From Psammoneis japonica (lineage: Eukaryota): a DNA stretch of 64,000 nt. Shown here one piece after another: positions 1 to 44,996 of this stretch. The DNA lies in assembly GCA_008632985.1 (NCBI GenBank), contig QPGO01000170.1:62001-126000 (forward strand), read 5' to 3'. Both the position numbers and the translations under genes were made by a program. Within the stretch, counting starts at the first letter, position 1. Each line of letters starts with the position of its first letter. The notes below the pieces were generated by a model. The model saw nothing but the letters and a program-made list of their open reading frames with translations. It searched no databases and was not told the origin of the DNA.

Positions 1-158
1 GTTGACTCACTCTAAAGAGTGAGAACACTTCATTTCAGGGACAACAGTGCGATGACAAAGAATGCATTGTCATCAGATGGGCCACATCAGGAGATGAACA
101 TCCATGGACTTCAACTGTTTTCGGGTTCTCTGACACCCTCGTCTAACTTGCTCTGACA
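1..158 (-). repeat. 3' LTR (partial) of the Copia element
   Basis: Aligns to 6715-6875. Begins TGTCAGAG on the minus strand, right after purine-rich GGCAGGAGTG (159-168, PPT position). Confidence 0.88.
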
Positions 159-227
159 CACTCCTGCCACTCACTCTGATTGTTCGTCCAACACTTCTTG
201 GGCCACAACATGGGTTGGAACATTGCC

Positions 228-1280
228 TCAAGGGACAACACTCCACCTTGCACGTGCATTGTGGAGAACATCATGAGGTTTTCTCTCAATTTTGACCCCT
301 TCAGCAAAATGCCACACATCTTGTTTGTTGTTTGAGCAGTGCCACGTGTCATCAAATGCATTGGCAATGCCCTTCACATAATCAACAAATGTCATTGTAA
401 AATCTTGTCTGATCAATTCTTGCTGTGCATCACTCAGCATGTCATTTCGGCCATCTAAATGTTTCACTCGTTCTTGCATCCACTGGTGAATGGCGCTTGG
501 AGTCAACATGAGGAAATCCACCGCGTGCACAACCCAGCAATGCTTTTGTGCATCAGACACAAATTTGATTGTCGTTCCAAAGAACATCAACAATTTCAAT
601 GCATTGAACATGACTCCATTCTTGTCTTTGACAAGCTTGCAACAATCCAGATGCTCAGCAGTGTGATTGTGGCCTGGACGCATCAGTCCGCTGCATTCCC
701 TGAGTTGGTCCATGCCAATTGCCGGCACACCTTGCAACCATGACACCTTTGCCATGCGGTTGATGTCTGGCCTTTCAAAGGCTGTTTTTGCAGGGCTCCC
801 TTGCCCCTGAGCAAACAATGGCCTTACCTCATTGTGACTTTCTGGCCTTTTTGCCAGGAATTTCCAACAGGATTCACAGGTGTGCACCACAATGCTCAGC
901 CACCTTGTCCTGTCTGTGATGGTCTCCATTTTGTCACAGACAGAGATCATTGGGGTTGCAGTGGATGCATGTCCCCGCATCAGCGGTGTCCATGTCTCAC
1001 GCATTTCAAACACAGTCACCATTGCTTTGAGCCTTGCACAGCATCTCTCTTTCCACTGCAAGTTGTGTGCAATTCAGTGCATCTTGTGCTGGAACAGGGT
1101 TTGGTGATGGTGGTCTTCCTCCATCAAGTTCTCCTCTCCTGTTTGGGTCAAAGGAAGGATGTGACCTCCTGTGCCAAAAACCTTGCAGGTCTTGCACTCT
1201 TCCATGTGCTTGCTTGGCATGCTGCTCAAATGTTGTGGTCTTGTTTCTGTTCCACCAATCTGTGGGTTGATTGTCCACAA
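228..1280 (-). pseudogene. Extra ORF of unknown function between RNase H and the 3' LTR
   Basis: 277-aa ORF 228-1061 plus overlapping upstream ORF 1006-1278. Same strand as pol and inside the LTR boundaries. Confidence 0.5.
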
Positions 1281-1619
1281 TGAGCTCATCTTTCTGAACA
1301 AACAGATCCTTGTGTCAGACAGGCATCTCAAACATCTTCACAATCTCAAGAAAACAATTCTTGGGCCAGCCGTCTGACACCTTGTTGTGCTTGTTGAAGG
1401 TGACATGCTCACAGCACGTGCATTCATCAAATGTGTGAGCATCGGCTGCTGCCATGTTTCCATCAAAACCTCTGGCTTCATTGCCATCCATTGCTTGATT
1501 GTGTGCTCAGTGTCACTTGCACCATGTTGCTCTGGGAGAAGATTGCACGTTTGTCATTCTCTGGTTTGCAGGGTCTGTCATAAAATGGGAGTCCACTCAT
1601 GTTGCCATTGGATCTGGCA

Positions 1620-41171: not shown

Positions 41172-41568
41172 GACGGGTTCCAATCCCAGGTGGGACTCCG
41201 TGTGACATTGGGCCCGCAGAATTCTACGTGCGAGCTCTGTGTTAAAATTGTCAATCAATTTAAACACAAATGATCGCCAACAGAAAAAGAGGCAATTTTA
41301 CGAACGTGTCTCCTCCTTCACACTTGCAGCACATGAACAACAGTTTGCATGGGTGTGTTCTACAGACATTGAAGAATGTGCCCAGCGCATTTTCATTGTC
41401 ACAAATGTTGAAAATAGAAAGCCTTTGGCTTCGCAAAACAGGAAGCATGAAACAATTTTGTAGAATGTCACACGCAGCCATCTGCGTGCGCGACATGCGG
41501 CGCGATCCAAAAAACTGTTGATGTCACAGTTCAGTGCTACGAGGTCCCACCCAGAGCTGGAACGCGTC
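41172..41568. mobile_element. 397-bp MITE, same family as the 33264 element (opposite orientation)
   Basis: GACGGGTTCCA ... CTGGAACGCGTC; TSD CACA (41168-41171 / 41569-41572); homologous to 33264-33635. Confidence 0.9.
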
Positions 41569-42451
41569 CACACTCTTTTCATTTCTGGTGCTTTGCAGAA
41601 TGTGAAGGTTGCAACAATTGCTTTTAAATTATCTGCTGGGATGCAACATGATTTGCCGCAACCATTTCTTTTGTTGGAAAGAACCCTGCCGCGCTTTTGA
41701 GCATGTGGCAGCAAGTCTTTGTAGTTGTTGAAATCTCCAGTCACCAAAGTGCGTTGTTCCTCTGTCTTCAACCTCTTTGCAGCATCAACCAAACTCTTTA
41801 AGACACGTTGTCTGGCCTTTTTGGCCACTTGCTTGCTTCTGGGACTGCCGCCAAGCCCTGCAAGAAATGCATCTTTGTTGACTTTGATTGTCAGGACAGC
41901 ATCCAACAATTTGCATGTGTGACAAGACACACAGTGTTCACACTTGAGCTGCGTCCTTTTCCCGAAATGACACCTTCCAACTCTGCACTGTTGCCAGCAG
42001 CAACACTCTCTCCAACGCTGTCTGCAATGTCACCACTTGTTGCATCTGCTGTCACTCCAACGTCTCCTCTGCTTCCACAGTTGGCTGCAACATTTGCACT
42101 CAAGCTGTGTCCTCTGCCAGTGATGATGCCTTCAGTTTCTGTGCTGTTGTCAGTGGCGACACTCTCTCCAATGAATGTCTCTCCAACACCCTCCACCACA
42201 TGTTTCCACTTGTTGCATCCGCCATCACTCCAACATCTCCTCCACTTGCATTGTCAGCTGCAGCAGTGGCACTCAAGCTGCATCCCATGCCTGAAATCAC
42301 ACCTTCAGATTCCATGCTGTTGGTGGCAGCGACACTCTCTCCTGCGCCGTCTGCAATGTTTCTGCTTGTTGCATCATTGGCTCAAGCTTCTGCAGCGCCA
42401 ACAGCATCAACCACCCTCACTCCAACGCATCCTCCATTTGCATCATCAGCT

Positions 42452-42847
42452 GACGCATTCCAGCCCTGGGTGGGAGCTCGCAGCACTGACGTGTGACACA
42501 AACAATTTTTGTCATCCGTCGCATGTTTCGCACGCACATTTCTGCGTGTGACATTTAAAAAAAATTGTCCAGACTCGCTGTTTTGCGAAGCCCCAGACGT
42601 TTCACATGACGAGTTTATAGAAACAGCAATGCACCAGTTGCATTCTTCAATGTCTGAAGAATGCAACTGGCTGAGTAAAAAATGATGCACTTCAATCATG
42701 GGTGAGTTTGTGCGTTCGCAAAATTGCCTCATTTTCTGTTGGCGATCATTGACATTTTAATTGCCATGTGGTTTTAGTGCGGAGCTTGCACGCAGAAGTC
42801 TGCGGGCCCAATGTCACACGGATTTCCACCCACGTCTGGAACGCGTC
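42452..42847. mobile_element. 396-bp MITE, same family
   Basis: GACGCATTCCAG ... CTGGAACGCGTC; shares GGGCCCAATGTCACACG; no clean TSD. Confidence 0.82.
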
Positions 42848-44996
42848 GCAAGGGTCTACCCAAAACCAATGTTTGTGCAGAGGTGTGGTGCTGTGCCCAC
42901 AAGAAGAGGCAAGAAAAGGGGCCAAGAGAAGAGCAGGTGCAAGAGCCATTTGGGTGTGGGTTGTTCTGGCATCTGAAGTTCCAAGCAAAGCTCCATGAGT
43001 GCAATGTGCAACGAGGGGGCAACAATCTGCAAGTGCACAAGCAGGGCGGCAACAGGGAAATGAACACTTGTTCTTGAGCCAAAGAGCTGGACACTGAGAG
43101 CATTTGCAAAAATGGGATTCTGAGCTGCGTGTCAACTTGGCAGTTTTCACTCTGGAGACATGAAAAAATGTCCCAACCAGGCAGAGCAGAGGAGAAGTCA
43201 ATGTCTTTTGTGTTGATCATTGTGTTTGTTCTTGAGTTGCTCAGCACTGCTGATGTGGTGGCTAGTGTGCCTGCTGCAGCAGCAAGGCATGGCTGGCTGG
43301 CTGTTCCTGCCTCTGGATGGGCACCACACTGGTGACTTGTTCCAGACTTGGGTGGTGCGCACTTGCCCCTTTTCACAGAAAAAATGATTTTTTGTGCTTC
43401 ATTCAACATCGGACACATTTCATTGTGTTGATCATGTCAATTGCTTGCAAGTAAAACAAACAGAATAAACTCGAACAAACAAACAGCCAAACCGGCCATG
43501 GCTTTCAGTGACCATGACGGCCCACTTTTTTCAGCCTTGTGGAAAATTTGATGTCATGACGAGGACCTCCATGTTTGACACAGTCTGTGGCATCAACAAC
43601 AACAGTGAAAATGCTTGTCACAGGCTGCAGGGCAGCACAACAATGCCAAATCTGTCAGAAACAACAATTGAGCCTCAGTTCACTCACAATTTGCCTCCAA
43701 GGACCATTTCTTTGCCATCACCATGTGCATTTCCTCAATGCATTTGACTGATTGAAGTGCATCAATCGTTTGTGCCTTTTGAACAGTGAAAAATGGTCCG
43801 AAGTCGACGCCATTGCGTGGGCTGAGCTGCCCTTCTTCTCACGTCGTCAGAAACTTGTTGATCAACGCATGTTTTGTTCGATCCGTTGAATGAAAGTTGC
43901 ACTCACGCATTTTAACAAAAGATCAATCATGTTGTGTTAGAGGGTTTGTTTGCACACAAGAACAATGTTTTGCACATTTCTTCACACATTGAGCCATCTA
44001 TAAATCGCTCCTCAGAAAACAGAGCTCTCAACTTACGGCGCAATTTGGCGACTGACAACTGTGTCCATCGACAGTTTCGAACACATGGGCACATGCACAA
44101 GACCTTTCTGCATGTGCCCACAACAACACATTTGAAAATTGTCATGTTTTTACTGTCGAAAATGGTGCCGCAAGTGTGGACCGCGCGTTTCATGCGAAAA
44201 GGGTCATTTTTTCGCGCGTGAGCGCACCCAAGTCTGGAACAAGTCTGGCGAACATGCTTCTCTCTCCAGCAGCACACCATTTTCTGGCTGTGCTTGTTCT
44301 TGATGTTTTTTACAGTGAGAATGGTGGCCCATCTTTGATCAACCAGCTTGCTCTTTGGCTTGCTTCCCTTGTTGTCTCCTCGAGAGCCAAAAGAAAACTT
44401 TTTTCCTTTTCTTGTGTGTCTTTTTTTGCAACAGCTTGGCTGCAGCACCCCCTCTTTCTCTCCATCAAGCATCTTGGTTTTCACGACACACATCTCTCTC
44501 TGCAAAAAGTGAGACCTTGACTTGCGCGCAAGTCCTTGCTTGCCGTGAGCATTTACATTGCCTCATTTTTTATATTTGATGGTTTTGTGTCATGTGCTGG
44601 CGCATTCTCTTTTTTGTTTTTTCAAGCGATTTCGCCAAAGCGTTGAATGGAAATGAATTTCATGAAACACGAATATAACATTATGATTCATTTAGAGCAC
44701 TCTTGCCTACTTTCCATGTCCAATCTTGGCATTGACCGTTGGCGATGTAATGTAGTTCTTCGTGGAAATATAAATTCAAATTTATTTGTTTATTAAATTC
44801 TGAATAATTTCATTCGTGTCGACAAGCCCGTCAGGACGAAAAAGAAAAAAAAACACACGAACGCCGCAACGCAACAGCAAGAGCAACGTGGGCGGTCATC
44901 ATCCATCGACGACGATACCCGCAAGTCCCGGCACATACACGTTATTGTGTTGGTTCTTGTGTGAAATACAACAACATCCATAACAACAACAACAAT

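Follow-up and report, generated by a model that had tools for sequence, protein, structure and literature searches.

Discrete tracts of mobile or degenerate DNA in the diatom Psammoneis japonica have lost nearly all of their TpA dinucleotides. The tracts lie in a 64,000-nucleotide stretch of the genome (the window; assembly GCA_008632985.1, contig QPGO01000170.1, positions 62,001–126,000 of the forward strand), and positions below are counted from its first letter. TpA gives way to TpG and CpA, the host genes in between are spared, the loss is independent of CpG decay and it reaches the untranscribed ends of transposons. It is likely that TpA-specific hypermutation of A:T to G:C acts on the chromosomal DNA of this diatom within these tracts. 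Its targets would be a Copia-type retrotransposon, DNA transposons with terminal inverted repeats (TIRs) and a helicase/HA-repeat gene later split by transposons. Hypermutation of mobile DNA in this direction, the reverse of fungal repeat-induced point mutation (RIP), had been proposed in an earlier reading of the same letters (the original prediction), which also called the process repeat-targeted and invoked DNA polymerase eta (Pol eta); the hypermutation, its direction and its opposition to RIP have held, and the other two parts are not supported.

We computed the observed/expected ratio (O/E) of TA and the other dinucleotides per 1-kb window, and placed edges at a finer scale, from 200-bp bins and the individual positions of TA and CG. 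TA O/E is 0.00–0.13 over 1–10000 (0–9 TA per kb), 0.13–0.14 over 18001–21000, 0.00–0.17 over 25001–29000, 0.02–0.07 over 37001–40000 and 0.08–0.20 over 40001–44000. Gene-bearing DNA holds 20–54 TA per kb, with O/E of 0.42–0.62 (10001–15000), 0.57–0.76 (21001–25000) and 0.36–0.78 (45001–64000). Three more stretches are partially depleted, 15000–17900 (0.25), 31700–33300 (0.11) and 34289–36634 (0.20). Block edges fall at about 10000–10035, 21175–21215, 25130–25230, 29300–29340 and 44550–44670, every one of them sharper than 200 bp. The sliding-window values thus match, in extent and coordinates, the original prediction that TA is near-absent from these blocks and normal in host genes, and the comparison of blocks with gene-bearing DNA confines the pattern to mobile or degenerate DNA. 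The blocks and the control regions between them are as follows (values are O/E).

1–10000: block A, degenerate and retrotransposon-rich; TA 0.05, CG 0.24, CA 2.01, TG 1.67
10400–15000: gene-bearing DNA, unaffected control; TA 0.55, CG 1.03
15000–17900: block F, high-copy repeat; TA 0.25, CG 0.94
17900–21200: block B; TA 0.12, CG 0.69
21964–24804, plus strand: 946-aa open reading frame (ORF), control, in 21200–25200 between blocks B and C; TA 0.69, Tyr 3.9%
25230–29300: block C, without recognisable protein domain; TA 0.05, CG 0.19
31798–33263, minus strand: block G, HA-domain repeat array; TA 0.11, CG 0.91, Tyr 0.5%
36959–39244, minus strand: helicase part of block D; TA 0.04, CG 0.66 (block 36960–40000)
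39245–44600: rest of block D and block E, a nest of TIR copies resembling miniature inverted-repeat transposable elements (MITEs); TA 0.02–0.20
44700–64000: gene-bearing DNA, unaffected control, with kinesin and CHAT/NB-ARC/kinase/Macro genes; TA 0.51, CG 1.01

Only two of the 16 dinucleotides are low in all five strongly depleted blocks, TA (0.04–0.12) and CG (0.19–0.69), and only two are high, CA (1.64–2.01) and TG (1.50–1.73). The remaining 12 range from 0.72 to 1.35, close to their values in gene-bearing DNA, and GC content is 0.46–0.54 in the blocks against 0.46–0.50 in gene DNA. TG and CA counts stand at 460:461 in block C and 781:778 in blocks D and E together.

The direction of change is recorded in protein-coding remnants, where conversion of TA to TG or CA turns a tyrosine codon, TAY, into TGY (Cys) or CAY (His). 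Tyr and Arg columns were scored at positions where homologues conserve the residue, and for the helicase the three closest homologues (41–51% identity, 2.3–2.7% Tyr) had to agree. Four frames enter this comparison.

2412–3089, minus strand: Copia-type reverse transcriptase (RT) fragment, 226 aa, no Tyr; spans the FNPCNPC/HDCLGM region
36926–39244, minus strand (36923–39244 in the Pfam search): helicase frame, DEAD/ResIII/Helicase_C and one HA domain (Pfam), 773 aa stop to stop
34289–36634, minus strand: DUF7869 ORF (Pfam DUF7869), patchily TA-depleted (O/E 0.20)
47524–49260, plus strand: kinesin motor, unaffected control gene

The helicase frame contains seven TA and no Tyr, and its nine conserved-Tyr columns read Cys six times, His twice and Phe once; it had been described as a 745-aa ORF without Tyr, of which the missing Tyr is correct and the length is not. 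Six such columns in the RT fragment read Cys (TGC) three times, His (CAC) twice and Arg once, and four conserved-Ile columns read Thr (ACA) twice, Met (ATG) once and Ile once. The DUF7869 frame keeps Tyr in three of nine columns (His in three, Cys in two, Arg in one) and hence is only partly converted; it retains Arg in 12 of 14 cells. With the three families taken together, conserved-Tyr columns hold Cys or His in 18 of 24 cases and Tyr in 3 of 24, which bears out the predicted replacement of conserved Tyr by Cys and His. The kinesin control, whose closest named relatives are from Phaeodactylum tricornutum (71% identity), Cylindrotheca fusiformis (67%) and Pseudo-nitzschia multiseries (66%), has Tyr in six of seven columns, Phe in one and Cys or His in none (Fisher p = 6.5e-4 against the pooled families). 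Tyr content is 0–0.9% in block frames versus 1.2–3.9% in host frames, and 1.1–5% in helicase, RT and DUF7869 homologues, save for a Tyr-poor subset of RTs. All four motifs originally quoted as altered are present, HDCLGM at 2410–2427, FNPCNPC at 2565–2585, DTHHFS at 35459–35476 and TCRSL at 38351–38365, each on the minus strand.

The RT fragment has no Pfam match even at E ≤ 10, yet an exhaustive phmmer search returned 2630 homologues at E ≤ 1e-3 (best E = 1.6e-54, 46–48% identity). All seven homologues tested carry RVT_2, three of them below the Pfam gathering cut-off, and on this ground block A holds a degraded Copia-type retrotransposon. Low TA does not appear to be a trait of the RT family. 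Among related metagenome loci, the best 80 of 460 confirmed have TA O/E of 0.26–1.09, with no 1-kb window under 0.25 in any of them; both the search patterns and this selection of loci favour unmutated copies. These relatives are TA-normal, not equally TA-poor. One sediment-metagenome contig of 1197 bp (L045) has a TA O/E of 0.26 and a CG O/E of 0.18; its Copia-type RT fragment (396–998) has no Tyr and reads His, Cys, Cys, His and His at the five aligned conserved-Tyr columns. This is the footprint of the blocks found again in an environmental sample.

A Tyr-poor subset emerged among the 150 best RT homologues (P0137–P0286) of a public protein library clustered at 50%. Eighteen have less than 0.8% Tyr, 14 of these none at all, and the median of the others is 3.4%. 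Over nine conserved-Tyr columns these 18 hold Cys 47 times, His 46 times, Tyr and Phe four times each and other residues five times, a Cys:His ratio near 1:1 that points to both strands being hit equally. Arg is kept in 43 of 56 cells, indicating TA loss without CpG decay. The subset may include sequences from the same species as the window. These are hypermutated pseudogenes already predicted as proteins in the public library.

Copies of a single TIR family provide the direction at the DNA level. The family has a TA-normal member, c1, and a set of converted ones.

33264–33636, plus strand, resuming at 36939–36958: c1, MITE-like TIR element, TA-normal, with TIR GACGNGTTCCAG...GGTGGGAC
40115–40680, 41172–41568, 42452–42847 and 43334–44245: MITE-like TIR copies with ends GACGNGTTCCAG...GGTGGGAC, in the block E nest; TA sites now TG or CA

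The conserved arms of c1 contain 10 TA sites. At these, copy c2 has two TA, four CA and four TG, and copy c3 has one TA, five CA and four TG. TG or CA thus occupies 17 of 20 cells across the two copies, and the changed sites gave no other product. Two sites carry different products in c2 and c3, and TA must therefore be ancestral there; the sole reverse case is one site with TA in c2 and CA in the others. Together with the conserved-Tyr columns, these arms uphold the predicted direction from TpA to TpG and CpA.

The same class of change separates younger copies. Block F contains two pairs of local duplicates.

15864–16540 and 17599–18275: 98.8% identical
16538–16963 and 17598–17173: 97.2% identical

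Their 20 differences comprise eight TA<>TG/CA, six CG<>TG/CA, four other transitions and two transversions. A control gene duplicate (54891–57674 and 59870–62655, 90% identical) has 275 differences, of which 21 are TA<>TG/CA, 38 CG<>TG/CA, 100 other transitions and 116 transversions; the TA<>TG/CA class differs between the two sets at Fisher p = 1.8e-4. Compared with other genomic copies, the window shows 220 counted differences, 189 of them transitions. Among 40 listed of 223 variants, nine are TA<>TG/CA, 15 CG<>TG/CA and 16 other, and in seven of the nine the window holds the product and the other copy TA.

The relative timing of conversion can be read from nested insertions in the helicase/HA region, which add two features to those above.

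31798–33003, minus strand: HA array, four Pfam HA domains in 205-bp repeat units; C-terminal half of the split gene
33637–36938, minus strand: DUF7869 DNA transposon-like element, 3.3 kb, nested in c1, with 28-nt inverted ends at 33637–33664 and 36911–36938

Element c1 sits in a 205-bp HA repeat unit that reads ...cctcgacatgcc... where it is uninterrupted. At the left junction ...cctcgaca is followed by gacgcg..., at the right ...cccgtc is followed by gacatgcc..., and the 4-bp target duplication GACA lies at 33260–33263 and 36959–36962. Helicase/multi-HA homologues are 1100–1300 aa long with an architecture that agrees with the joined halves. Given this architecture and the target duplication, one minus-strand gene once comprised both the helicase (39244 to 36959) and the HA array (33263 to 31798), and c1 split it; the DUF7869 element entered c1 later. 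TA-less HA and helicase flanks give way to the TA-normal c1 in no more than 15 bp: on the left TA first appears at 33279, and on the right it occurs at 36924 and 36928 and next only at 37412. The insertions and their GACA duplication thereby give a relative time order for the hypermutation. The simplest reading is that it acted in place and in episodes and that c1 arrived after the helicase gene had been converted. The DUF7869 element is itself patchy, with 12 TA left in 35001–35400, 0–3 in the adjacent bins and a left 0.8 kb that is TA-normal. One of its homologues is named Amphora coffeaeformis; like the kinesin relatives, this marks the window as DNA of a diatom and not of Bigelowiella.

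The TA-poor bases are supported as sequenced. Public run X1, whose type was guessed as DNA, is stored as rebuilt contigs with a word depth of about 60 and contains 0.91 of the sampled words of 1–10000. Its contigs show no difference from the window over 409–1246, 2612–3045 and 3852–4403, one over 6608–7818 and three over 7807–9972, so that the raw-read support sought in the original prediction is provided by contigs rebuilt from ~60x reads. Summed X1 word depth marks 1–7337 as multi-copy (up to 266) and 14675–16008 as present in many copies (620–717). Positions 7338–10005 are at single-copy depth (60–83), yet fully TA-poor, and the helicase/HA gene is not recognisably mobile but is also hit; on both counts the label repeat-targeted is not supported.

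TA loss and CpG decay come apart within the same tracts. We compared them as –ln(remaining fraction), assuming starting O/E values of 0.55 for TA and 1.0 for CG, which gives 2.6 for TA versus 0.41 for CG in block D, 1.6 versus 0.09 in block G, 0.79 versus 0.06 in block F and 2.4 versus 1.43 in block A. Within a given tract, TA loss would have run almost to completion and outpaced CpG decay about tenfold. As the original prediction held, CpG decay alone cannot explain the pattern, block 36960–40000 combining a TA O/E of 0.04 with a CG O/E of 0.66. CpG decay is instead a second, separate and slower process, present in blocks A and C. There CG O/E is 0.24 and 0.19, TG and CA are raised, and all seven conserved-Arg columns of the RT fragment read CAN (Gln four times, His three times), the product of CpG to CpA. 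CpG decay through deamination of 5-methylcytosine likewise yields TpG and CpA, and is seen in blocks A and C and in the conserved Arg codons of the RT; it differs in consuming CG, not TA, and in blocks D, F and G it trails TA loss by a wide margin. A diatom has been reported to have DNMT5a-dependent methylation, the loss of which accompanies overexpression of young transposons (PMC9998398), and this would fit the separate CpG decay in the blocks. The link to methylated DNA drawn in the original prediction is not needed for TA loss, which runs ahead of CG loss in four blocks.

Flanking bases appear to modulate the loss. Taking gene DNA as a stand-in for the ancestor, and with some survivors being new TAs, the surviving fraction of TA relative to gene DNA is 0.006 in ATAC/GTAT, 0.011 in GTAC, 0.03 in ATAT, 0.05 in ATAG/CTAT and 0.13 in CTAC/GTAG, and it rises through 0.17 in ATAA/TTAT, 0.20 in GTAA/TTAC and 0.21 in CTAG to 0.35 in CTAA/TTAG and 0.51 in TTAA. 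Tentatively, RTAY (R, purine; Y, pyrimidine) is hit hardest and YTAR least.

A closely similar process has been described in the chlorarachniophyte Bigelowiella natans (Mettrop et al., bioRxiv 10.64898/2026.01.13.699255). Among 302 nuclear point mutations in 15 mutation-accumulation lines, 231 fell in two integrated viral tracts, one of a nucleocytoplasmic large DNA virus (NCLDV) and one of a virophage. All but one of these (230 of 231) were A to G or T to C, all at TpA, at a rate of about 6e-7 per site per generation and in only some of the lines. The B. natans genome also holds 124 clusters of 1-kb windows depleted in TpA and enriched in CpA plus TpG, and RT and DDE-endonuclease domains are enriched in its TpA-depleted coding sequences. 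Adenine deamination to inosine was proposed, with an ADAT2-like candidate (10.64898/2026.01.13.699255).

Likeness to B. natans is close. Transitions at TpA only, giving TpG and CpA on both strands, occur in both; both have discrete non-host tracts beside normal genes and a lasting footprint of low TpA with high CpA plus TpG. By the thresholds of the B. natans footprint, 1–10000 qualifies over 10 consecutive 1-kb windows (TA 0.00–0.13, TG+CA 1.75–1.92), as do 25001–29000 and 40001–44000 over four consecutive windows each. The differences are in host (a diatom, hence a stramenopile, versus a rhizarian), in targets (transposons and a gene split by them, no viral hallmark having been found here, versus integrated NCLDV and virophage DNA) and in depth (TA O/E 0.04–0.12 versus 0.45 in the B. 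natans NCLDV tract). CpG decay is moreover superimposed in some blocks here, and the window gives a footprint only, where B. natans gave mutations in real time. By this analogy we take the two to be processes of one kind. The defence-like mutator suggested in the original prediction finds its match in the same mutation-accumulation precedent (10.64898/2026.01.13.699255).

In P. japonica the hypermutation would act in place on the chromosome, in episodes and on silenced chromatin, turning each TA into TG or CA and hitting both strands about equally. TA is its own reverse complement, and hence the damaged base could be A or T. The most likely chemistry would be deamination of adenine in 5'-TA-3' DNA to inosine, which is read as G, and the candidate enzyme would be of the tRNA-adenosine-deaminase type. 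The substrate of tRNA adenosine deaminase, A34, always follows the universal U33, a built-in 5'-UA-3' context. We favour adenine deamination over a route through thymine and regard the U33–A34 context as a lead.

In the thymine route, a TET/JBP-type enzyme would oxidize T in 5'-TA-3' of silenced DNA and the change would be T to C: 5-hydroxymethyluracil (5hmU) and further oxidized forms mispair with G, giving TA to CA on one strand and TA to TG on the other. The palindromic TA leaves damage to A and to T indistinguishable, and 5hmU made by a TET/JBP homologue in dinoflagellates, which like diatoms belong to the stramenopile–alveolate–rhizarian (SAR) group, is linked to transposon silencing in the title of PMC11572971. 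The window itself offers no sign of any modified base. Dinoflagellate 5hmU has a preference for TpA, and 5hmU opposite A is generally regarded as weakly mutagenic. On balance we judge the thymine route unlikely.

Alternatively, elements could have been edited before or during integration, as cDNA or as excised or extrachromosomal DNA in the manner of APOBEC3, so that the blocks mark pre-edited insertions. Sharp block edges, at least one of them at an insertion junction, and the different extents of conversion among copies of one family are what such editing would produce. It accords poorly with the range of sequences hit, which comprises a retrotransposon, cut-and-paste-type TIR elements and a helicase/HA gene without mobile features. 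Both flanks of a later insertion in the helicase gene are TA-less, conversion of the DUF7869 element is patchy, and vegetatively growing B. natans acquired its mutations in place, within integrated DNA present as a single copy (10.64898/2026.01.13.699255). We therefore give editing before integration little chance as the explanation, and prefer action on the chromosome.

Error-prone repair of methylated heterochromatin by a Pol eta-like enzyme, which makes A-to-G changes at WA (W, A or T), would be in keeping with the CpG depletion of blocks A and C (0.24 and 0.19), as would be expected of methylated diatom transposons (PMC9998398). WA includes AA, yet AA O/E is 1.19–1.35 in all five blocks (AT 0.73–0.92), which disfavours Pol eta, and TA loss is near-complete where CG is largely kept (TA/CG 0.04/0.66 in block D, 0.11/0.91 in block G); this explanation is very improbable. 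RNA hyper-editing of the ADAR type, fixed through retrotransposition, was rejected as a general cause because the ends of DNA transposons and a non-mobile helicase gene are converted. That no mutation process took place, the blocks being foreign DNA of natively low TA or a sequencing or assembly artefact, might be suggested by the avoidance of UpA in many genomes, with gene DNA here already at 0.5–0.7, and by a supporting run that may be the assembly's own sample, but is scarcely credible when conserved Tyr is replaced specifically by Cys and His in three protein families, relatives are TA-normal, one element is present in the window in both a TA-normal copy and TA-poor ones, contigs from ~60x reads agree exactly, and the signature recurs in 18 diverged RT clusters and a sediment-metagenome contig.

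Several points weigh against in-place, TpA-specific hypermutation of chromosomal DNA as we have described it. The footprint is read from sequence, not from mutations in real time in this organism, and run X1 may be the assembly's own source sample, in which case the bases are supported as sequenced and not by an independent individual. Action in place is itself deduced, and transposons could still have been edited before or during integration. Two TA-normal stretches, c1 and the left 0.8 kb of the DUF7869 element, have TA-poor surroundings, from which it follows that targeting is not simply by family or by neighbourhood; timing would account for both. Six TIR sites have an identical product in c2 and c3, so that part of the conversion reflects shared ancestry and predates the c2/c3 split. 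The RTAY preference, tentative with gene DNA standing in for the ancestor, has no obvious match to tRNA position 32, usually a pyrimidine. Finally, a runs test of TG and CA (z ~ –2.4 in blocks C, D and E, +0.6 in block A, –1.9 in gene DNA) detects weak strand clustering, which speaks neither for nor against an enzyme acting on single strands.

The process also differs from the established systems that it resembles. RIP, like the hypermutation here, makes dinucleotide-context transitions that disable mobile DNA and leaves sharp compositional blocks. RIP, however, converts CpA to TpA with a gain in AT content and new stop codons, and it depends on duplicated sequence, whereas TpA here becomes CpA or TpG, GC is barely altered and no stop can arise. 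The RIP signature of TpA excess in AT-rich DNA is absent (CA 1.64–2.01, TA 0.04–0.12, GC 0.46–0.54): CA is enriched rather than consumed, which vindicates the description of the pattern as the reverse of RIP. The function of the RID-related diatom enzyme DNMT4 is given as unknown in PMC9998398. In animals, ADAR and APOBEC enzymes mark retroelements with clustered, deaminase-type transitions. ADAR depends on double-stranded RNA, in which it edits A after A as well. It prefers a 5' U (10.64898/2026.01.13.699255). DNA-transposon ends are converted here and AA is untouched, in contrast to ADAR; APOBEC changes C, not A.

Hypermutation confined to TpA in non-host DNA has one prior report, the 2026 chlorarachniophyte preprint (10.64898/2026.01.13.699255). 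Our literature searches found no report of TpA hypermutation in diatoms and, for hypermutation in Bigelowiella, only this preprint as relevant. If the analogy is right, the window adds a second lineage for a process of the B. natans type, acting on transposons and close to saturation. Such a process would not be peculiar to one alga or to giant-virus insertions, and it would extend to a group that is genetically tractable and of great ecological importance, a second host helping to narrow down the enzyme through shared gene content. It is quite possible, though tentative, that diatoms, and perhaps much of SAR, possess a dedicated and guided DNA-editing defence directed at 5'-TA-3' of silenced mobile or foreign DNA. 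By deamination of A or oxidation of T, it would erase TA roughly ten times faster than methylated CpG decays and would disable proteins by removing every Tyr without making stops. A defence of this kind would be the mirror image of RIP and a eukaryotic equivalent, working on DNA, of the deaminase immunity of animals, and two such distant hosts would let comparative genomics pinpoint the enzyme.

The footprint has consequences for annotation. By the genetic code, TA to TG or CA cannot make a stop and removes TAA and TAG, so that frames stay open on both strands; long ORFs are thus to be expected in the blocks and do not speak for genes. In TA-erased DNA gene finders will make false calls, domain models can miss remnants such as the RT fragment, and Tyr-free 'proteins' of this origin are already in public protein libraries.

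The remaining contents of the blocks are mostly beyond recognition. Twelve block A ORFs gave nothing meaningful against Pfam at E ≤ 10. A Pfam search at E ≤ 0.05 with 120 ORFs of 90 aa or longer in blocks A, B, C and E put only GCR1_C at or above its gathering cut-off; the search otherwise returned a below-cut-off Znf_SCAND3 match and weak, chance-level matches, with no viral domain, block C and most of block A being too degraded to name. The named features of block B are these.

17873–18778: tandem array of 180-bp units, inside an open 352-aa frame
18891–20891, minus strand (18888–20891 in the Pfam search): GCR1_C ORF, 667 aa, GCR1_C at the C-terminus, Tyr 0.6%
20895–21338, minus strand: Znf_SCAND3-like match, 25.4 bits, below the 27-bit Pfam cut-off

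The GCR1_C frame and the Znf_SCAND3-like finger (18891–21338) are reminiscent of what we take to be the Crypton arrangement, a tyrosine recombinase plus GCR1_C; the catalytic tyrosine, if ever present, may be gone from a frame with so little Tyr. Tandem arrays with a period of ~173–181 bp recur in or beside mobile elements at 17873–18778, 33749–34256 and 41941–42375, and the consensus of the seven 180-bp units itself holds only three TA. A search of block C for terminal repeats found only short, weak ones. An island with normal TA and CG (27001–27400) interrupts block C and may be a younger insertion or an element boundary; a 16-nt inverted repeat, 94% complementary (25210–25225 and 27211–27226), joins the left edge of block C to it. 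Three overlapping frames are open at 39291–40136.

Neither X2 nor X3 has contigs on 1–10000, which is no guide to whether the blocks are expressed; X2 contigs are present only on 10.2–18 kb. They skip 11283–11348 (66 bases) and 12857–12935 (79 bases) in the manner of spliced transcripts, which suggests that X2 is RNA and that the genes at 10.6–13.4 kb contain small introns. At the other end of the window, an immune-receptor-like gene cluster occupies 49426–63170 on the minus strand. It comprises a 1408-aa frame with CHAT, NB-ARC/STAND and protein kinase domains, a Macro-domain frame, and STAND and CHAT frames, and it contains the 2.8-kb duplicate (54891–57674 versus 59870–62655) used above as a control.

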